Part shown: positions 3,688-61,845 of the stretch, in pieces | How positions within the stretch are numbered: the stretch's first letter is position 1 | Layout of the letters: the number at the start of each line of letters is the position of its first letter | Virus record (IMG/VR): IMGVR_UViG_3300011862_000001 | Span: 32,001-96,000 of that record | Length of the DNA stretch: 64,000 bases | Strand: one strand, 5' to 3' | From: a virus | Taxonomy: Duplodnaviria; Caudoviricetes | Notes under the pieces: generated by a model | The model's database searches: none | What the model was told of the DNA's origin: nothing | Seen by the model: the letters and a program-made list of their open reading frames with translations, nothing else | Program-made: the position numbers and the translations under genes

Positions 3688-4239
3688 ATGGATTCCATGT
3701 TAGCACAAGGCTTACCGGTTAATAGCACGTCCACCACGGATGAACTTGCCTGCACCTATGGCCGTACAGAACTGATTGGCCGTATCGGTGTGTTGGCTGA
3801 AACGCATCTGTTGGCATTAAAGAACGTTGTCGACGAAGAAGTCTTTGAAGGCGTGTGTGATTTCCCGGTAGAACTGATTGGTCAAACCGTCAACGGTTAC
3901 CAACGTTTTCTGGCAGAGCTCGGTAACGGTAAAGAAACCGCTCAGGTTGTGGCCGGGATGATTATCCGTATGCGTGCCGCCCTGCTGTATGAATTCGGCC
4001 CGGATACCTTACGTCGTCTTCAGGCTGAGCTTATCGGCTTAACCTCAAGCCAGTTAGAAGAAGCGGTGTCACGTCGTGATATCGACTCCCTGTGGAGTGT
4101 GGCGAACCCGACCTTGCGTCAAGCCGAAATCAGTCGCAGCTGGGACTTGTTAGCGACCTTCTTATTTATCAGCCATGCTAAGTGGTTGCTGGTACGCGCT
4201 GCCGCTGCCATGGAGCCTGACCAGAAGACAAAAAAATAA
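3688..4239 (+). CDS. Hypothetical protein
   Basis: 183-aa ORF with AGGAG RBS. Confidence 0.75.
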   Translation: MDSMLAQGLPVNSTSTTDELACTYGRTELIGRIGVLAETHLLALKNVVDEEVFEGVCDFPVELIGQTVNGYQRFLAELGNGKETAQVVAGMIIRMRAALLYEFGPDTLRRLQAELIGLTSSQLEEAVSRRDIDSLWSVANPTLRQAEISRSWDLLATFLFISHAKWLLVRAAAAMEPDQKTKK

Positions 4240-4289: not shown

Positions 4290-5168
4290 TTAACCACGCA
4301 TCTGGTTGTTCATGAACTCATCAGACACGGTATTGAAACCGCCTGCGGTTGCGTTCACATCCGGGTTGATACCGTCAACCTGCTGCGATGGCGTCAGCCA
4401 CAGCTTACGGGTCATCGGACGCAATCCGTACAACTTCATGCGTTCCAGTTCAGACTGGGCAGCCTGCATCGGGCCCCAACCAGTCCATTGCTGGCTGGTG
4501 AAGCTGATGGACAGTTCGTTAGTCTGCGGCCCGGTGTTCGGGTCACGCTCGCCAATATCCTGACCTGCTGTTTCTGGAATCATGTTGGTCAACCACCAGG
4601 CGTTCTGCGCTTTACGCTGATACGCATCCGGTTCGATATACAGCACGGTCATGCTGTACATATCCGGCAGGTGGTCTGGCACGTTCGGGTTGATTGCCGC
4701 AATACCCGGGTGACCGGTTTGCGGATCAGACAGCCCATAAATCAGCCACGCTGTCAGCATGTTCTGGAACACCTTACCGTATTTATCCGGCGTGGTGTGC
4801 GTTACAGAAGACAGTGCTTCGGTAACCAGACCTGCTTCATACTGCACGCGGTTGTTACGACCCTGTTGGGTCTGTACCGCTTCGTGGCTCAGGGTTTTGT
4901 CCAGACCGGTGATGGTGGTGTGAACCTCGATGAAGGACTTAATTGCCTGCCGCCAGATTGACGGGTTCGGCATGTAGTCCACCCAACGAGGGAACTCCAT
5001 CACACGGGCAATGACGTTACGACGCAGACGGTGGGCGTTGGTAACGAACTTGCCAACCTGTCCAACCGGGCCTTGTTGGCCCGAGCTGAATGGGTTAACC
5101 ATGTCGTACTGACCACCGTCAACGTGGAAGCCCTGGTTAGGCTGGATAATACGTTCTTTGATAGCCAT
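4290..5168 (-). CDS. Tail tube protein (phiKZ gp30-like)
   Basis: 292 aa directly downstream of the sheath gene; size, position and YSMTVLYIEPD...AWWLTNMIP fit the family. Confidence 0.75.
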   Translation of the reverse strand: MAIKERIIQPNQGFHVDGGQYDMVNPFSSGQQGPVGQVGKFVTNAHRLRRNVIARVMEFPRWVDYMPNPSIWRQAIKSFIEVHTTITGLDKTLSHEAVQTQQGRNNRVQYEAGLVTEALSSVTHTTPDKYGKVFQNMLTAWLIYGLSDPQTGHPGIAAINPNVPDHLPDMYSMTVLYIEPDAYQRKAQNAWWLTNMIPETAGQDIGERDPNTGPQTNELSISFTSQQWTGWGPMQAAQSELERMKLYGLRPMTRKLWLTPSQQVDGINPDVNATAGGFNTVSDEFMNNQMRG

Positions 5169-5171
5169 TTA

Positions 5172-7229
5172 TCAGTTCTCCCGACGATAGACTTTGATTG
5201 TGGTGTTCACCTGAGTGAGCAGCACACCGCCGTACGCGAGCAGATCCAGCGTTACTGAATAGCCATTCGCCACGTCTTCTGCGGTGAAGTACGCGTTCGG
5301 AGTAATGTCCGCGATACCATCCAGGCGACCGTTCAGGCGCTCGATGATGCGGCTATTAATCTCTTTGGCGATTTCATCACGAGTCAGACGTGATTCACCT
5401 GACATATCCGCCCACACACGGTCAGAGACACGGTAGGCATACGTCATGATGAAGTTGAACAGCGCGTTATTCAGCACTGAACGTTCTTCGTCGTAGATTG
5501 ACTGAATCGCCGGAATGAACAGGCGATAGTAGTCGTAGGAGCGGGCGGTAATCAGTGACACATCCCAGTCGGATGCATACACGTCATTGCCTTTCCACGG
5601 CATACTCAAATCAGTCAGGTCGCTAATAACGGTCAGTTCACCACGGCTAAAGCGGTGAGCTGGGTCGGCACGGCCTTCGGAAGCACCCAGATATTTGGAG
5701 AACATGTTCGCCAGGGTGTAGTTCATCGGCACCGGCTTCTTGTAAGAAGAGTTGCGGATGAGTGCAGTCTGACCGGTGACGATACCACGCGCAGACGGAG
5801 TGCCGTATTTGGCAGACTCAGGCACGGAGGTAATCAGTTCGATCAGCGCGACTTTGGCGCTTTCTTCGGTCTGGAGGTCATTACGCCCCTGATCGTAGAC
5901 ATGCGTACACAAAGCCAGGAAGGTGTTGCGCGATTTGCCAATGAAGTTCACACAGGCAGCTTTGGTGTCGAAACTGAAACCGGAGTCCCAGAAACAACCC
6001 AGCGAATATTTCAGCTCGTTATCGTAGCTGACTTTTCCACCATCCGGGAACATGAGCATTTCACGGCGTACGAGTTCGTCGTAGGCATCGTTACCCATGG
6101 TACCGTCACTACCGCCTTGCAGATAGTGAATGTTGGTGGCAGAGAACACGGTTTTACCCGTTTCGGTAACCGGGTTCAACTGGAAACCGTCGTACGGCTG
6201 GCCAATCAAATCCATCCCACCGAACAGGTCGATGAGGTACGGATCGCTTGGTGCTGCACTCGGGTTAGCGGCGCTTACCGCAGCGTGAGCCAGGTCCAGC
6301 ACGGCTTTCAGCTCTTCGTGGTAAACGTGGAACGCTTCAAACGGTCCGTAGTGTGGCAGCTCACCCACATCCGGCGTCGTCTTACGATACGCCTCAGGAA
6401 TGACCACATCCACATCGAGTTGCGTTCTCATCGGCTGATAGTATGCATCGGGCTTAAAGCTGAAGTTGATGCTGGAGACGCTGGTCAGCGTTTTCCATAC
6501 TACCGGAGAGGTTACACCGGCCAGGGTTTCAAACCATTGCATGGTGTAGACGCGCGCACCGACCGTCTGCTGATAAGCAGCCGACAGAGACGGGGAGGAT
6601 TTCTCGTTCAGTGGAACCAGTTTAAAACCAAAGCCATTGCAGTCATCACCGGCGTACGGTGCTTTGAAATCGAACAGCGGGTACATCTTCGACTTCGCGC
6701 TGGTAGTGGCATTGGTCAGCGTGCCATCAATGATTTCCGCAGCGCCAAAAGCGGCGTCGTTGGCATTGATTTTCAGGCTACGCAGAACGACCAGAATCCC
6801 GTCTGCTTGGGAAGCAACTTTCGCTTTCCCGGCACCATCGTACTGCACCTTACCATTGATGCGTTCGTAGACCGGCACTTTCGTGGCCAGCACGTCGGCA
6901 TACAGACGGTAGGTTGCAATCGCGGCATCATCAGGTACGAGACGCTGGTACATACACTCGTTGCCGTTCGCATTGAACATCGCCTGGTAAGGCGTGTTGA
7001 ACGTTGCGTACGGACCACGGAGATCGAACACGTTGCGGCCGAGCAGATCGAGTGCGTTATTCCCGTACAACGGGAATGCCTCGTTATCTACCCCGCGCGC
7101 GGCAAAGGTGAAGATCAGCGGCTTGTGAATCGGGTCACCCGTAGGTGTCCGCACAAGCTCGGGGACAGAATTGTCCAGCATCCCTTCCTTGTTATTCAAC
7201 GGCATGCCGTTACGTGAAATATAGGTCAT
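5172..7229 (-). CDS. Tail sheath protein (phiKZ gp29-like)
   Basis: 685 aa with LQGGSDG and FWDSGF sheath motifs; divergent from the gp28-27-26-terminase block as in phiKZ-like phages. Confidence 0.85.
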   Translation of the reverse strand: MTYISRNGMPLNNKEGMLDNSVPELVRTPTGDPIHKPLIFTFAARGVDNEAFPLYGNNALDLLGRNVFDLRGPYATFNTPYQAMFNANGNECMYQRLVPDDAAIATYRLYADVLATKVPVYERINGKVQYDGAGKAKVASQADGILVVLRSLKINANDAAFGAAEIIDGTLTNATTSAKSKMYPLFDFKAPYAGDDCNGFGFKLVPLNEKSSPSLSAAYQQTVGARVYTMQWFETLAGVTSPVVWKTLTSVSSINFSFKPDAYYQPMRTQLDVDVVIPEAYRKTTPDVGELPHYGPFEAFHVYHEELKAVLDLAHAAVSAANPSAAPSDPYLIDLFGGMDLIGQPYDGFQLNPVTETGKTVFSATNIHYLQGGSDGTMGNDAYDELVRREMLMFPDGGKVSYDNELKYSLGCFWDSGFSFDTKAACVNFIGKSRNTFLALCTHVYDQGRNDLQTEESAKVALIELITSVPESAKYGTPSARGIVTGQTALIRNSSYKKPVPMNYTLANMFSKYLGASEGRADPAHRFSRGELTVISDLTDLSMPWKGNDVYASDWDVSLITARSYDYYRLFIPAIQSIYDEERSVLNNALFNFIMTYAYRVSDRVWADMSGESRLTRDEIAKEINSRIIERLNGRLDGIADITPNAYFTAEDVANGYSVTLDLLAYGGVLLTQVNTTIKVYRREN

Positions 7230-31667: not shown

Positions 31668-32264
31668 ATGATTTACAAAGTGTTAGCCGTGCACAAATGG
31701 GCCATGAAGCTCGGCGTCATCGGTTACCTGACAGACGGCGAAGTGTTTCAGCAAGCCGTGGAGAAGCTGGTCGTCAGCTTTCCCAAGATGTACATTGACT
31801 TGCCGGAACGTGAGCTGGATAGTGATACCATTTATACGGCTTTTCACCACACTGCTGCGCGTTACTTGTCGGATTACAAAGCCCCGTTATCGCGTGCAGA
31901 ACTGACATTGATTAAAGGCTTTCTGGATTCGCTTAACGACGAATACCGACGTTGGCGATTTGATGCCGGGATGGGTTGTCAACGCGATGACTCGGTGATG
32001 GAAGAGTTGCAGCTGTTAGTGAACTTACACAAAGCCGTACGCAGCGATAACTTTAGCGTCATCAAAACCCTTATCGATTACACGATAGAGGAGTTGGCGC
32101 AGTTCTTCTCTACGGCAATTGTGGAAGAGTTCCAGGATGCGGTTACTCTGTTCACTCACCATCATCAACGACCGATATCCAACCTTGCGGTCAGCGTGGA
32201 CTTTCCGAAGAGTCAATATAACATCATGGATATGAGACTGCTTATCCACATCCCGGAGGAATAA
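31668..32264 (+). CDS. Hypothetical protein (operon gene 8)
   Basis: AAGGAG RBS. Confidence 0.75.
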   Translation: MIYKVLAVHKWAMKLGVIGYLTDGEVFQQAVEKLVVSFPKMYIDLPERELDSDTIYTAFHHTAARYLSDYKAPLSRAELTLIKGFLDSLNDEYRRWRFDAGMGCQRDDSVMEELQLLVNLHKAVRSDNFSVIKTLIDYTIEELAQFFSTAIVEEFQDAVTLFTHHHQRPISNLAVSVDFPKSQYNIMDMRLLIHIPEE

Positions 32265-55807: not shown

Positions 55808-58558
55808 ATGCACGAGATACACATCACGCACACCTCGATGGGGGTGCGCGTAGAGGCAACGGTTAGGCAGGTGGAGATAGCTCTCAAAACCTGGGCTGAA
55901 CGTTCCCTACACGCCCCGAAAATGGGGAAATCGGACGGCCGAATTACCATCGAGCAGGGTGATGGGTTTTATGCACACTTAGCAGGTTCCCGCACCTTTA
56001 TCTTTCATAAGGCGTTCTTAGAACCGATCCTCTCGATCATCAAGAATGTCGCAGTAGAGTACCGTCTCGACATTCAGGTTATTCACCACGATGCTACCAA
56101 GAATCGTAAGCAACCGTATGGTTGTACATTCCCCAACCACGGGTTTGAATTAAGCGTCGACGATCCTAACTCCAGGTTTTATTACCAGAACGACGTAGTA
56201 GAAGCCGCACTTGATCCACTTCGTGCACAGGTTATCTTTGCCATTCAGACAGGCAGAGGAAAAGCGGCTGCTCATGGAACACGAGTTAGAGTTCCAGGCG
56301 GCTGGAAGAAAATTGAAGAAATAAAAGTGGGAGACTACGTTACCGGCGGTGATGGCCGTCCAACGCGCGTTACTGGGGTGCATCCGCAAGGTATCGTACA
56401 GCTTTATCAGGTTACGTTTGATGATGGGCGAAGCGTTGATGTATGTGGTGAACACTTATGGCAATCGTTTTATGTCAACACGACAGAAAACCGACGTTGG
56501 GGCGTTCGTTCCACCCTAGAGATGAAGCGTCTGATCTCAATGCCGAATCCTCGCGTTTACATCCCACTGCCTGAGCCAGAAGAAACCACTGAAAAAGAAT
56601 TTTCTATCCACCCGTACGTACTTGGTGTATTAATCGGCGACGGCTGTATTAGTAGCGGTTCAGTTAAATACGCTAAAGCAGACATGGAGATTTTTGAACG
56701 CGTATCAGCCCTAGGTCCAGAGCATCATACGCTTGCTCCGACCGAGTATCGTGATATCGTCAAAGGTTTCACTAACCGTGGCCCGAGCGAGGGCCACATT
56801 AGGCGACGGTTAGAACATATGGGTTTATGGGGTTGTCGCTCATGGGAGAAATTTATTCCAGCTGAGTATTTTGAAGGGTCTATTGAACAGCGTTGGGAAC
56901 TGTTGCGTGGCTTGTTCGATACCGATGGCACTACGAACAAGGATGGCGGTCAGCCCTCCTTCACATCGACCAGCAAGGCGCTAGCTATTGGTGTGCAGGA
57001 ATTAGTACGTTCTTTAGGCGGTATTGCTTCGATGTATATCAGGCATACCCACTACACTTGGAAAGGAGAGAAGAAACGTGGGCGTGAGAGCTACACCGTT
57101 CGCGTACGCCACAAGAAACCGTCAAATTTCTTCCATCTACCAAGGAAGAAAAATTTGTGTCGCGATGAAGGTCAATACACCGATATCCTGAAGCTTCGGG
57201 TAAAGTCTATTGAGCCTACTACTCGTGACTTCGCTACTTGTATCAGTGTTGATAACGCCGACAGCCTGTACGTGGTTGATCAGTATATCGTGACACACAA
57301 CACCAAGTCACTCCAGAAGGTCATGGTAAGGATGGGGGTGCGAACGGCGCTTATCATGCGACCGACGTACAAAGACAAATGGCTGTTTGACTGCTGCGAA
57401 GACAAGACCGGTCTGCTCGTGCCCAAAGAACAGGTGTTGGTCTGCCAGGGCGTACAATCTATTTACGACGCCTATGAGATGGGTGAGAACGGGGAACTCG
57501 ATAAGCGCGATATTCGTATTGTGATTATCCCGACCACCACCCTTCAGCTGTTTCTGAAAGAGTATTGCAATACCTCTGCTTCTAACCCAGTGAACCTGGA
57601 TAACTTTTACGACGCCTTGGGCGTCGGCCTTGTAGGGTATGATGAGGTACACGAGCACTTCCTGCTGGTTTACCTCAGTGGTATCATGTTGAACCCGCCG
57701 AAGACCGTGGAGATGTCCGCCACACTCGAACCGGGTGCCAACAAGGTGTTTATCCGTGACCGCTATATGGAACGCTTCCCGCCGCCGTTCAGGCTGTCGG
57801 TGGCCCATATTCCTGTCGTGGATGTGCGTGGCTTCTATTACACCATCGAGGATAAGAAACTCGCCTGGTGGGCTAGTAAGATGACGCCGTATAACCACAA
57901 GGTGTTTGAAGGCAAACTGATGCGTGAGGGTTACCATGAATCGTACGCCCAGATGTGGTACGACATTATGGAGAAAACGTATCTCAAGAATTACCAACCC
58001 GGTCAGAACGTGGTGTTCTTGTTTGCGACCATTGACTTCTGCGAATACTTCACGCAGTTTGTGAAAGCTAAGCTCGCAGCGTCCGACCAGTTCCATGCTT
58101 TAATGGTGTCGAAGTATAACGGTGGCGATTCGTATGATGACTTCATCATGGCGGATATCGGTATCTCGACACCGAGTAAAGCGGGAACGGCAATCGATAA
58201 GCCGGGGATGATACACATGTACGTCTCCACGCCTATTGACGATCAGCAGTTAAACGAACAGATAGCTGGACGTCCGCGTCCAGTGAATCTGACGTTTGGG
58301 TGGGACATGAACCCGACTGTGTGGTTTGGCCATGCCATGAACATTGCTAAACACGGGTCGTACCTTAACTCGCGGATGAAGTCGTTAACATCGAAAGTTC
58401 TCTCATTCAAGATTGCGGCATCGCCGTACGTGATAAGGAAAGGTTATGATCACCCCCCCACTTCCTCTCGATCCAGAAGTCCCTTACGTCGGCTTGAGTT
58501 TAGCAAAGTTTCTCGAAAACGTGCTAAGGGCGTATCCGGGCGTAGAAGACGTCGCTAA
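55808..58558 (+). CDS. SF2 (DExH) helicase, phiKZ gp75-like, containing an intein
   Basis: Walker A QTGRGK|T, YDEVH, MSAT and QIAGR motifs. Confidence 0.88.
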   Translation: MHEIHITHTSMGVRVEATVRQVEIALKTWAERSLHAPKMGKSDGRITIEQGDGFYAHLAGSRTFIFHKAFLEPILSIIKNVAVEYRLDIQVIHHDATKNRKQPYGCTFPNHGFELSVDDPNSRFYYQNDVVEAALDPLRAQVIFAIQTGRGKAAAHGTRVRVPGGWKKIEEIKVGDYVTGGDGRPTRVTGVHPQGIVQLYQVTFDDGRSVDVCGEHLWQSFYVNTTENRRWGVRSTLEMKRLISMPNPRVYIPLPEPEETTEKEFSIHPYVLGVLIGDGCISSGSVKYAKADMEIFERVSALGPEHHTLAPTEYRDIVKGFTNRGPSEGHIRRRLEHMGLWGCRSWEKFIPAEYFEGSIEQRWELLRGLFDTDGTTNKDGGQPSFTSTSKALAIGVQELVRSLGGIASMYIRHTHYTWKGEKKRGRESYTVRVRHKKPSNFFHLPRKKNLCRDEGQYTDILKLRVKSIEPTTRDFATCISVDNADSLYVVDQYIVTHNTKSLQKVMVRMGVRTALIMRPTYKDKWLFDCCEDKTGLLVPKEQVLVCQGVQSIYDAYEMGENGELDKRDIRIVIIPTTTLQLFLKEYCNTSASNPVNLDNFYDALGVGLVGYDEVHEHFLLVYLSGIMLNPPKTVEMSATLEPGANKVFIRDRYMERFPPPFRLSVAHIPVVDVRGFYYTIEDKKLAWWASKMTPYNHKVFEGKLMREGYHESYAQMWYDIMEKTYLKNYQPGQNVVFLFATIDFCEYFTQFVKAKLAASDQFHALMVSKYNGGDSYDDFIMADIGISTPSKAGTAIDKPGMIHMYVSTPIDDQQLNEQIAGRPRPVNLTFGWDMNPTVWFGHAMNIAKHGSYLNSRMKSLTSKVLSFKIAASPYVIRKGYDHPPTSSRSRSPLRRLEFSKVSRKRAKGVSGRRRRR
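56264..57301 (+). mobile_element. Intein (346 aa) with LAGLIDADG endonuclease; class 3 type
   Basis: Starts AAAHGTRV and ends YIVTHN|T; block B CGEHLW, block F ATCISV; LAGLIDADG motifs LGVLIGDG and LRGLFDTDG. Confidence 0.92.
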
Positions 58559-58882: not shown

Positions 58883-59479
58883 ATGTCCCGTCGTAAAAAG
58901 CTTAACGGTTACAACCCTAAACAAGAAGCGCGCGATGCTATCATTCGCCAGATGCGTGCGATTAATAGCACTGAGCATCTCTTTATCCACGAATCCCGTC
59001 TGATGGCGGATAACCTGGATGCGGAAATGGCAAGCCTGGCGGCAATTGCTGATCCTGACCTGCGTACCTATTTGCAGGGGCGTATGGAAATCGTTAAGAA
59101 AGGCTATGCTGGCCTGTTGCAAGAGTTCTTGCAGAAGATTGCTGATGTTCGCACCCCGGCTGATAAAGTTGCCACGGCCATGATGGACCGTCTGGCTAAC
59201 GAGAAGTGGGATGCGGTGCGTGATGTCTTCACACTCACTGAAATCCAGCTCGGCGCAGCTGAAACTGAAGCAGTGGTGCTGGGTCAGTCCGCGATGGGTG
59301 CTGGGATTGATTTGTTTACCGACTACGCCTCACGTCGTGCTGCCGTTGATCGCGGTATCAAGGCCAATGCCTCCACCCAAGATATCCTGGCGCAGATGAC
59401 CGCGCTTGATAAAGAACTGGCTGAAAAACAGACGGCTGCTGAAGATGCGTCCGTCTCTGAGGAACCGAACAATGTCTGA
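58883..59479 (+). CDS. Hypothetical helical protein
   Basis: ATG after AAGGA. Confidence 0.75.
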   Translation: MSRRKKLNGYNPKQEARDAIIRQMRAINSTEHLFIHESRLMADNLDAEMASLAAIADPDLRTYLQGRMEIVKKGYAGLLQEFLQKIADVRTPADKVATAMMDRLANEKWDAVRDVFTLTEIQLGAAETEAVVLGQSAMGAGIDLFTDYASRRAAVDRGIKANASTQDILAQMTALDKELAEKQTAAEDASVSEEPNNV

Positions 59480-61406
59480 ACAACTTGACCCGCGCCCGTC
59501 TGTGGTGCGTCGTGACGAAACCCCTGCGCCGGAGACTGCATCATTCGTGATGCTTCCCGACGAACAGCTGCGCGTCCTCGATAAGGGGACCGCAGTCATG
59601 GAGCTGCTTCGTACCAACCCCACTTTTTCTTTGATCGAAGCCGGTCGTCGTTACGAAGCGTGGGCTGCTGCACAGGCACCTGCCCCACAGCCAGAACCGG
59701 TTGCTGTTAAACCGGAACCCGTTGTCGAACCCGCACCGGTGGTTCCACCTGCTCCAGCACCAACGCCGGAACCGGAACCGGTCGTGACGGCACCTGTCAC
59801 TCCTGTTGCCGCTGCTGCGGTTAACACTGCCGTGGTAGACCCTGCGACGGTTGCTGCTCAGACCTTGATTGAAGAATCGCGTGCTGATGCCGCCCCGCAA
59901 GTGGCCAGTGTCAAAGTGCGTCGTACCAACTTCGGTACCCAACCGCATCGTGAAGAAATTTCTACGCTGGCGGAAGATGACCCGCACCAGATTCTGATTC
60001 GCTCTGATGAACTGATTGGCAGTACCGTGCCGATTACCGGTGAGGAAGACGTGCGTCGTTTCTTTGCCAGTATCAAGCGTAATGGTAAAGGCCAGCCGAT
60101 GTTCGCCTCCGAAGCAGAAGCGGAACGTTACCAGACCCTGGTCACTGCACTCGAACTGACCCCGCCGAATGGTGGTAACGGTCGTCCGGCGTTTGACACT
60201 GCGCTTGAGCGTGAAGACACGGCCTGGACACAACAGCTGCGTCTGCCTGACGGTAAGTGGGTAGGCCCGGTAACGGACCGTGGTGCTGGGGCACCGGGTG
60301 CACTTGCTGCGCTGCGTCGTCGTCGTCAGTCCGGTTCTCCGGTGTCGGTGTGGTTACCGGCTACCGGTATCTACGTGGGCTTTCGTGCACCGCTTGAGCG
60401 CGAGATGTGCGACTTCGATATTCGTCTGGCTGCGGAAACGGCGCAGATTGGGATGCAGACCTATGGCCTGTTGCTCTCAAGCATGTCGGGTGTGTACCTG
60501 CGTCACATGGTGGAACATTCACTGAACTTCGCTGTGGAAACCACCTTTGACTGTCAGGGTAATGACATCAAAACCGCACTGATTGACATTGTCGATCTCG
60601 ACGATTACTGGTTGCTGCTGCTCGGCCCAATCATCGCCAAGTTCCCAAGCGGGATTCCGTGGAAGCTGATTTGTCCGAAAGACTGTGGGCATGAGCGTGA
60701 TGTACGTTTGAACCTGGCTCGCTGTATCCGTATGGCAGACGGCCTGTTCACTGACCTGCATCGCTCTTTGCTGGCGCGTCAACGCGGTACCACCAACCGC
60801 ATTATCAGCCCGGAAGATTACCTGGCGTACCGTAACGACCTGCCGCACAACCCGGCTGCGGTGTTTGCCCGTCCTGACCTCGGTATCACCATTAACTTTG
60901 GTCGCTCGACCATCGGTGATTACCTGGACAGCACCGACCGTTGGTTAGAAGAAATCAACCGCTCTGCAACCGAAGCCCTGTCGTCTAACGCCAGTGACTA
61001 CGAGCGCAGCCAACACATTCGCTTAACGGCGGAGATTCGTCGTCTGACGCGTCACGCCCACCACATCAAATCCATTACCGTGGAAGAAGAAGTGAAAGGC
61101 GAAGTGGTGGAAGTCGTGGAAACCGACCCGGCCAAGATTGTCGAGATTCTCGAAGAGCTGTCGTCTGACCGTCCGTATGTGTTAGCGTTTGAAGATGCGC
61201 TGGCAAAATACAACGACCTGTCACGCTTAGCAGTCCTCGGCTATATGGGTCACCCGTGTCCACACTGTAAGACACCTGAAGGCGAAGAAGACGGACCGTT
61301 CCGTGGTATTGTTACCATTTCACCGGACCGGGTTTTTTTCGTGCTATCTCGTGTGGTGTCCGAGATACAGAAAGTCTATTTACAACAATTCGCAAATATT
61401 GGCTAG
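59472..61406 (+). CDS. Conserved protein (phiKZ gp77-like by position); tail-chaperone/T4 gp26-like C-terminal Zn domain
   Basis: 644 aa with GAGGA RBS; Pro/Ala/Glu-rich linker; CPKDC and CPHC; ends near ...PDRVFF. Confidence 0.7.
   Translation: MSEQLDPRPSVVRRDETPAPETASFVMLPDEQLRVLDKGTAVMELLRTNPTFSLIEAGRRYEAWAAAQAPAPQPEPVAVKPEPVVEPAPVVPPAPAPTPEPEPVVTAPVTPVAAAAVNTAVVDPATVAAQTLIEESRADAAPQVASVKVRRTNFGTQPHREEISTLAEDDPHQILIRSDELIGSTVPITGEEDVRRFFASIKRNGKGQPMFASEAEAERYQTLVTALELTPPNGGNGRPAFDTALEREDTAWTQQLRLPDGKWVGPVTDRGAGAPGALAALRRRRQSGSPVSVWLPATGIYVGFRAPLEREMCDFDIRLAAETAQIGMQTYGLLLSSMSGVYLRHMVEHSLNFAVETTFDCQGNDIKTALIDIVDLDDYWLLLLGPIIAKFPSGIPWKLICPKDCGHERDVRLNLARCIRMADGLFTDLHRSLLARQRGTTNRIISPEDYLAYRNDLPHNPAAVFARPDLGITINFGRSTIGDYLDSTDRWLEEINRSATEALSSNASDYERSQHIRLTAEIRRLTRHAHHIKSITVEEEVKGEVVEVVETDPAKIVEILEELSSDRPYVLAFEDALAKYNDLSRLAVLGYMGHPCPHCKTPEGEEDGPFRGIVTISPDRVFFVLSRVVSEIQKVYLQQFANIG
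61334..61367 (+). promoter_or_regulatory. Putative programmed -1 ribosomal frameshift signal
   Basis: In-frame T TTT TTC heptamer followed 4 nt later by a TATCTCG/CGAGATA hairpin. Confidence 0.7.
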
Positions 61407-61813
61407 ACGCCGACGACATCCCCTCGGGGACCATCATCAACGCCTTAAAGCTGGATACCACCTCGCTGTTTAAACAGCGCAGCAGCCGTCCCATTACGTA
61501 TCAGGAAGCGCACGACGAGTTATTGTCGACCTACGACGGTGTGTTGGACCTGAACACCGGCGAGAACAACGTCGGGCTGTCTGATTTCGAGAACCCGATG
61601 ATGGGTTCGTTGTACGAAATCTGGATGTCGACGTATGTGCGTGAACAGATTGGGGAAATCTTCCGTGTTAGTTTCGATGAGTTCCTCAATCGACCACGGT
61701 GGGAAATGATGAAGATGTTGGAAGTCGCGAAACGTCGTACTGCGGAGTTGAAAAAGACACACGACAGCGTTGTCCCGGACGATTGGGAGAAGCAGTTGCA
61801 GGGTCGTTTATAA
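61340..61813 (+). CDS. -1 frame extension forming the C-terminal part of a frameshift fusion protein
   Basis: Frame is open from 61280 to 61813 with no ATG, GTG or TTG before 61523; ends in ...SFDEFLNRPRWEMMKMLE. Confidence 0.65.
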   Translation, partial: RAISCGVRDTESLFTTIRKYWLDADDIPSGTIINALKLDTTSLFKQRSSRPITYQEAHDELLSTYDGVLDLNTGENNVGLSDFENPMMGSLYEIWMSTYVREQIGEIFRVSFDEFLNRPRWEMMKMLEVAKRRTAELKKTHDSVVPDDWEKQLQGRL

Positions 61814-61816
61814 TAG

Positions 61817-61845
61817 AAGGGGCTTCGGCCCCTTTATTTTTTTTT
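61817..61845 (+). terminator. Intrinsic terminator
   Basis: AAGGGGC-TTCG-GCCCCTT followed by a T run. Confidence 0.85.

Follow-up and report, generated by a model that had tools for sequence, protein, structure and literature searches.

A probable programmed -1 frameshift near the end of a jumbo-phage gene of the phiKZ gp77 (cg18) family

The 64,000-nucleotide (nt) stretch of virus DNA analysed here (positions 32,001 to 96,000 of IMG/VR record IMGVR_UViG_3300011862_000001; the window) carries a gene for a protein of 644 amino acids (aa) that is a member of the cg18 / phiKZ gp77 family. Shortly before its stop codon this gene overlaps a second open reading frame (ORF) that lies in the -1 frame and runs on for more than a hundred codons, and programmed -1 recoding joining the two is supported. 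From the sequence we infer that the shift is ribosomal: this copy of cg18 probably yields two isoforms, of 644 aa and 780 aa, by a -1 slip of the ribosome at the heptamer T_TTT_TTC.

By this mechanism, most ribosomes would read frame 0 and stop at 61406, giving the 644-aa protein. A fraction would slip back one base with two tRNA-Phe on TTT (P site) and TTC (A site) at 61334-61340, and the slipped ribosomes would go on in the -1 frame to 61813 to make the predicted 780-aa protein. In the long form the 21 C-terminal residues of the short form would be swapped for a conserved helical domain of 157 residues, and the ratio of the isoforms is probably fixed by the sequence.

The junction and coding selection in the -1 frame

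The features of the junction are as follows.

59472..61406, + strand: frame-0 ORF of 644 aa (ATG at 59472, TAG at 61404-61406)
61333-61339, + strand: run of seven T's (T7) in the frame-0 codons CGG GTT TTT TTC
61334..61340, + strand: slippery heptamer T_TTT_TTC in frame 0 (P site TTT, A site TTC); its codons TTT TTC encode the Phe-Phe (FF) at aa 622-623 of the 644-aa protein
61340..61813, + strand: -1 extension, 157 codons and a stop, helical, of the phiKZ gp76.4 family (PHROG 7580 and 12109)
61341..61406, + strand: dual-coding overlap, encoding the 21-residue frame-0 tail and its stop together with the first 22 codons of the -1 extension
61345-61351 and 61361-61367, + strand: hairpin TATCTCG/CGAGATA, 7 base pairs (bp) with a 9-nt loop, 4 nt past the heptamer, with no demonstrated function
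61407..61522, + strand: apparent intergenic gap, coding in the -1 frame without a start codon

The T7 run is invariant across five aligned close relatives. The open -1 frame spans 61280-61813, and past the run its first ATG, GTG or TTG is the TTG at 61523, which is preceded by 61 codons with neither a start nor a stop. The predicted products are 644 aa and 623 + 157 = 780 aa long, the latter with ...SPDRVFF joined to RAISCGVR, and the Asp-N peptide predicted across the 780-aa junction is DRVFFRAISCGVR. A preliminary description of this DNA had given the positions of the heptamer, the -1 frame and TTG 61523, a terminator at the end of that frame and the lengths of both products, and all of these were reproduced.

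The distribution of nucleotide variation is revealing of which frame is translated on either side of the run. Variable columns were counted by codon position in an alignment of the window with its four closest relatives (Erwinia Machinavirus phages, ~78% DNA identity). The 600 nt upstream of the run are ordinary coding sequence, with 205 of 597 sites variable and the changes concentrated at frame-0 third positions (45/199, 26/199 and 134/199 for positions 1, 2 and 3). Across the apparent gap at 61407-61522, variable sites occupy 3/38, 0/39 and 28/39 of positions 1, 2 and 3 of the -1 frame; because the variation there is that of -1-frame third positions, the gap is protein-coding in the -1 frame despite having no start. 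The overlap between them (61333-61406) is nearly frozen, with 6 of 74 sites variable and 2 of 25 frame-0 third positions changed versus 134 of 199 upstream, which is the pattern expected from two superimposed reading frames.

Protein-level comparison extends this signature to more distant phages. When the 157-residue -1 product was run by tblastn against 50,697 phage records, it aligned from its residue 1 in 62 of the 68 matching records (45-83% identity), and the matches always straddle two annotated 'hypothetical' genes. An in-frame fusion of the large ORF with the extension was found nowhere among 1.84 billion representative proteins searched with HMMER. The exhaustive search of that set with the extension gave 32 matches, and every true homologue among them is an ORF of 71-165 aa. 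For the large ORF, 52 homologues were collected, many of them metagenomic and with identities as low as 41%; each is 604-706 aa long and covers the frame-0 end. The split is thus universal and never resolved by a simple insertion or deletion, an argument that the phages need the short product as well as the long one.

Several apparent fusions were considered and rejected. A 312-aa fragment on a 1.6-kb contig (P0004) changes frame ~30 codons before an intact run, and a 580-aa match (P0111) is a repeat protein unrelated to the core. The single 796-aa ORF of SEGD1 (KU726251; a strain of the SPN3US species) was rejected as a genuine fusion as well, its T7 being intact and its frame changing upstream. 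At about 3975-4000 of the extracted SEGD1 locus, just upstream of the T7, lies a scrambled patch of 25 nt that differs from SPN3US and holds one extra base; it looks like a local sequence error or edit.

Conservation of the junction across jumbo phages

The family to which the 644-aa ORF belongs is widely distributed. The ORF matches PHROG 8054 (E 1e-279) and PHROG 4585 (E 1e-59), which are common to phiKZ gp77 (PHIKZ077), Simmy50 and RSF1. By tblastn the large ORF is present in 202 phage records, from phages of Pseudomonas, Serratia, Klebsiella, Ralstonia, Vibrio and Xanthomonas, phiKZ-like phages included. The supplementary core-genome table of PMC10299810 lists gp77 as Chimalliviridae core gene cg18, a 'hypothetical protein'.

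The junction was surveyed by script in 19 phage records of ~15 genera (SPN3US, phiKZ, Agricanvirus, Moabite, Ralstonia and Vibrio phages and others), IMG/VR contigs being outside the sample. In all 19 the downstream domain is encoded in the -1 frame. Read from the T-run, this frame reaches the end of the domain without a stop in every phage except RVTF4 (18/19), giving extensions of 149-172 aa in the 18. Start-less stretches of 18-85 codons follow the heptamer in 18 phages and contain no stops in the -1 frame, where the other two frames have 46 and 70. The in-frame heptamer T_TTT_TTY/G is kept by 15 of the 19, with SNUABM_54 among these reading T_TTT_TTG. In those 15 the codon before FF is GTT, CTT, ACT, GCT, GGT or TAT, so the residue varies (V/L/T/A/G/Y) and the codon always ends in T; the T-run always reaches upstream of the FF codons (15 of 15) and in no case downstream of them. 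Frame-0 tails (FFxL and 8-37 aa more) and -1 peptides are both conserved between genera. The peptide right after the slip site, for example, reads xNDEY...R.L..DFG in Simmy50, SA002 and Proteus phage 10. The heptamer and the open -1 frame, which the preliminary description had proposed to follow across the Chimalliviridae, are therefore conserved well beyond close relatives.

In the RVTF4 record (extracted locus 2734-2936) the extension ends at 57 codons and what is left of the domain is encoded in another frame, a break that represents either a second frame change or a sequencing error.

The same arrangement is present in the best-studied members of the group. phiKZ gp77 with PHIKZ076.4, and SPN3US gp39 with gp40, belong to the same two families and have a T-run at the aligned FF and an open -1 frame; in phiKZ the site is T_TTT_TTT and is followed by 85 start-less codons without a stop. 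The phiKZ and SPN3US records nevertheless present two unrelated hypothetical genes with no frameshift annotated. The window protein is longer than phiKZ gp77 (644 vs 533 aa), with a longer Pro/Ala-rich N-terminus and a frame-0 tail of 21 vs 11 residues. Between gp77 and gp76.4 of phiKZ, 218 unannotated nt (extracted locus 5603-5820) lie in the open -1 frame, and this stretch is conserved as protein with PA1C, Viktualia and RVTF4 (GGPES...SRL...GHV..FG). In the window protein, aa 60-135 (window 59650-59880) are Pro/Ala-rich (A+P = 49%) and of low complexity of the PEPV type; even close relatives differ in the length and sequence of this stretch, and phiKZ-like homologues lack it.

Source of the frame change

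Slippage by the ribosome is favoured because the heptamer is conserved in phase while the length of the run varies, from T5 to T8. Several observations weigh against it. A shared downstream structure was sought in the 19 phages and none was found, with z < -2 in only 1 of 19 regions. Neither an upstream Shine-Dalgarno-like element nor a strong downstream hairpin of the kind found in dnaX is evident at the window site. The 7-bp hairpin that the preliminary description noted 4 nt after the heptamer is present in the sequence, but a role as frameshift stimulator is not supported: the fold of the 45 nt downstream (-8.2 kcal/mol) is at chance level (z = -0.5 vs shuffles), the stem has only 5 bp in SPN3US and EarlPhillipIV, and the family shares no structure. 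With no conserved stimulatory structure, the efficiency that we infer for the shift may be low, or the mechanism may be non-ribosomal. A perfect heptamer is missing from four of the 19: sites are weaker in PA1C (A_TTT_TTC), RVTF4 (A_TTT_TTT) and pVa-21 (CTT_TTT_A), and SNUABM_54 has G as the last base of its heptamer. Protein-level constraint moreover accounts for part of the T-run conservation, because the FF dipeptide is itself a conserved protein feature, one that T4 gp26 has too. Finally, pVa-21 has a good start (GAGGA-N5-ATG) ahead of the downstream domain.

If the ribosome does not slip, the RNA polymerase might. Phage or host polymerase would add one U on the A7 template, and the resulting U8 mRNAs would be read through; this is an unlikely alternative, but the best of those considered. 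The phages of this group have divergent multisubunit RNA polymerases of their own for transcription, and rU:dA is the weakest homopolymer hybrid. With bacterial RNA polymerase, slippage on runs of 7 is only low. The lack of a conserved RNA structure to stimulate a ribosomal shift is in its favour, as are the runs of 7-8 T's common to 14 of the 19 phages; yet Vibrio phage Yong XC31 keeps the heptamer with six T's only, and the -1 frame is still open behind the T5 of PA1C and pVa-21. Polymerase slippage, furthermore, would need neither the intact frame-0 X_XXY_YYZ phase nor a run placed upstream of FF, both of which are kept in all 15 heptamer-containing phages.

A still less probable explanation is that the two parts are separate genes, as public records annotate them. 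The domain would then start at TTG 61523 or at a non-canonical start, and the open -1 frame upstream would reflect coupling or some other constraint. An ATG does occur ~37 codons past the run in SPN3US and Machina-like phages, and pVa-21 has the GAGGA-N5-ATG described above, but the candidate starts are at non-homologous positions. The 61 start-less codons of the window show clear -1-frame coding selection, the -1 peptide is conserved right from the T-run onward, the -1 relation holds in 19 of 19 phages, and the surveyed stretches are free of stops in 18 of 18. Independent initiation is thus contradicted both by the coding selection that precedes each candidate start and by the non-homology of the starts. 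It is possible in some lineages, given the good GAGGA-ATG of pVa-21, where the two parts may be uncoupled and on the way to separate genes. In the pVa-21 record (extracted locus 3855-3976) no stop interrupts the -1 frame after the run, even with the CTT_TTT_A site.

A single 780-aa gene that appears split through a homopolymer sequencing error or recent frameshift mutation, for which the error-prone nature of T7 runs and the continuous ORFs of SEGD1 and one metagenomic fragment could be cited, is excluded in practice by conservation, since the same split is seen in more than 60 independently sequenced genomes and in metagenome-derived proteins, the frame-0 tail past the run is conserved as protein, and the two continuous ORFs arise before the run (through an extra base upstream of a retained T7 in SEGD1, and ~30 codons ahead of it in P0004).

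A ribosomal -1 slip of this kind has well-known counterparts. In the tail assembly chaperones of lambda (gpG/gpGT), P2 (E/E+E') and Mu, a conserved -1 slip on a simple heptamer near the 3' end of a morphogenesis-type gene likewise adds a C-terminal domain and gives short and long isoforms. The lambda G/GT site has a low frameshift efficiency, and Levin et al. in 1993 are said to have found that the slip there needs no strong stimulatory structure. T7 gene 10A/10B and E. coli dnaX tau/gamma also use a -1 frameshift to make two isoforms differing only at the C-terminus. The T7 extension is added at a U-rich site late in the gene (G_GUU_UUC), and dnaX has a strong upstream Shine-Dalgarno-like element together with a downstream hairpin. 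Both are different proteins from gp77, with different functions.

Predicted fold, relatives and genomic setting

Outside the junction, three features of the 644-aa protein bear on its relationships.

59472..60188, + strand: N-terminal region of ~240 aa, variable among relatives; it aligns poorly or is absent in distant ones
60672..60686, + strand: first Cys pair, CPKDC, aa 401-405; both Cys invariant in 33 homologues
61257..61268, + strand: second Cys pair, CPHC, aa 596-599, followed by FRGI at aa 610-613; Cys invariant in 33 homologues

The preliminary description had likened the two frames to a G/GT tail-assembly-chaperone (TAC) pair. Membership in the lambda G/GT family did not hold up, as there is no tape-measure gene nearby, the protein is ~5 times larger and no TAC Pfam domain is present. 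Lambda TAC proteins are ~100-150 aa (G) and 250-300 aa (GT), compared with 644 and 780 aa here, and the window heptamer is U_UUU_UUC versus lambda G_GGA_AAG. No link to a TAC domain was found in Pfam, NCBIfam or PHROG, and a search of BFVD with the extension returned one TAC-named row, at rank 48 with E = 3.9.

Thirty-three homologues went into an AlphaFold2 model of aa 240-644, which is confident, with a pLDDT (predicted local distance difference test) of 81 and a pTM (predicted template-modelling score) of 0.81. In BFVD it finds its own family first, at query-normalised template-modelling scores (TM) of 0.75-0.89. The next ~20 models found by Foldseek, of 245-285 aa, are named baseplate hub subunit, hub assembly protein (T4-like) or hub assembly chaperone. 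These matches have E values of 5e-6 to 1e-2, probabilities of 0.95-1.0, target-normalised TM of 0.35-0.59 (~0.5) and root-mean-square deviations of 7-20 Å, and are between models that are predicted on both sides. Against the PDB (Foldseek and VIA-align) the same model has no meaningful match, only helical-hairpin matches with Z <= 5.9, and a sequence search of solved structures gave nothing for the large ORF or the extension.

The proteins behind these names are gp26 (208 aa) and gp51 (249 aa) of T4, which a review of the T4 tail describes as hub assembly chaperones (PMC3004832). Both match PF12322 in full, at 216 and 178 bits, and are thus paralogues. The motifs of the window protein run in the order CPKDC, a GD-I-x-F strand, CPHC, FRGI and FF near the C-terminus. 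T4 gp26 is collinear, with CTC, a GD-I-x-F strand, CPEC, IRGL and FF, its end reading CPEC...IRGL..FFELL (C-terminal end ...CPECGKTHAHVIRGLKEFFELL, T4 extracted locus 4803-6229), and gp51 carries CPKC and CC. By this collinearity the slippery Phe-Phe matches an ancestral one that in gp26 stands three residues before the C-terminus. The two Cys pairs are a putative Zn site.

Similar predicted fold, collinear Cys pairs, RG[IL] and FF together suggest, on predicted structures and short motifs, that gp77 is an enlarged distant relative of T4 gp26/gp51, and such remote homology is the somewhat better supported interpretation. Profile comparisons count against it: PF12322 is not matched by the window protein or by its 33 homologues even at E <= 10, and hhalign of the family alignments against the single T4 gp26 and gp51 sequences gave short local matches of low probability, one of which places the window CPHC/FRGI on CPECGK...IRGL of gp26. 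The 644-aa protein matches no Pfam family at E <= 0.1, PHROG hidden Markov models (HMMs) give no link between either part and PHROG 150 or PHROG 634, and the NCBIfam HMMs give no gp26-type match for the window protein, nor for T4 gp26 itself. In T4 gp51, PHROG 634 ('baseplate hub assembly catalyst', 121 aa) covers no more than the C-terminal 100 residues, so some T4-like phages may annotate that portion of gp51 as a separate small gene.

The preliminary description had also compared the two frames with a T4 gp26/gp51-like pair. For the 644-aa part this likeness is partly supported, by predicted fold and motifs; HMM and profile comparisons do not back it, and the downstream domain does not resemble the C-terminus of gp51 (hhalign probability 0.06%). 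The AlphaFold2 model of the extension is helical (pLDDT 78), matches only its own family in BFVD and has no meaningful match in wider structure searches (Foldseek PDB and VIA-align, Z <= 4.7). A predicted complex of core aa 240-623 with the extension scored 0.07 against a mark of 0.32, a result that counts neither way. The gp77 core is about twice the length of T4 gp26 or gp51, with extra helical insertions and a long N-terminal region. Unlike the single gp77 locus, T4 makes its two related products from paralogous genes; gp26 has no frameshift, and its -1 frame after A_TTT_TTT reads TGA. The main text of the Goslar virion structure paper, in which 28 proteins were modelled, leaves the Goslar homologue gp81 unmentioned, which is no more than a weak hint of absence from the virion. 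If gp77 is a relative of gp26/gp51, its short and long forms would by analogy work in tail assembly as lambda G and GT do.

The gene is flanked by an intein-bearing helicase gene and by ORFs of 208 and 284 aa, with the gene for a virion RNA-polymerase beta-like subunit one gene further, and relatives have the same order. The preliminary description was therefore correct that the gene does not lie beside a tape-measure gene. Pairwise BLAST gave no significant match between the 208-aa and 284-aa ORFs and gp78 and gp79 of phiKZ, so that synteny with phiKZ is backed only by size and by the adjacent RNA-polymerase gene. The helicase ORF (55808-58558, + strand, 916 aa) carries its intein as a Hom_end-associated Hint match at aa 164-206 and a Pfam LAGLIDADG_3 match at aa 363-419; ~350 aa are inserted in the window helicase, given that those of relatives are ~567 aa. 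The recoded unit itself is closed by one further feature.

61816..61845, + strand: intrinsic-terminator-like hairpin followed by T9, with the stem GGGGCTTCGGCCCC identical in five aligned relatives

A -1 frameshift that gives two C-terminal isoforms of a phage assembly protein is of a well-known kind, and the gp77 instance appears to be undescribed: no frameshift is annotated for the family in the phage records examined, and full-text literature searches turned up no description of one. Chimalliviridae such as phiKZ, SPN3US and Goslar have been studied intensively, and cg18 is still a 'hypothetical protein' whose downstream partner has no consistent annotation: it is given as a small ORF with arbitrary starts or, as in phiKZ, is in part unannotated. 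Reading the locus as one recoded gene corrects the annotation in every family record examined and extends a core protein by a conserved domain of ~155 residues. The link to gp26/gp51 would provide the first functional lead, baseplate-hub assembly, for cg18, and the gp77 site would be a natural and phylogenetically deep case of a U-rich -1 frameshift without a stimulator.

More speculatively, and with considerable doubt, all nucleus-forming jumbo phages might set the isoform ratio of a giant gp26/gp51-like hub-assembly factor through a single obligatory -1 frameshift that arose independently of lambda G/GT and works in the same manner. If so, the hidden domain of ~155 aa would serve to recruit a partner (the tape-measure or spike complex, for instance, or some other compartment-specific factor) and would belong to the core proteome of the family without having been noticed there. 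The site, in turn, would be a conserved point at which translation fidelity controls virion assembly. These proposals make it testable whether a frameshift sets the chaperone ratio in giant contractile-tail phages that have no G/GT pair, and whether the ribosome or the unusual RNA polymerases of these phages are the source of the shift.

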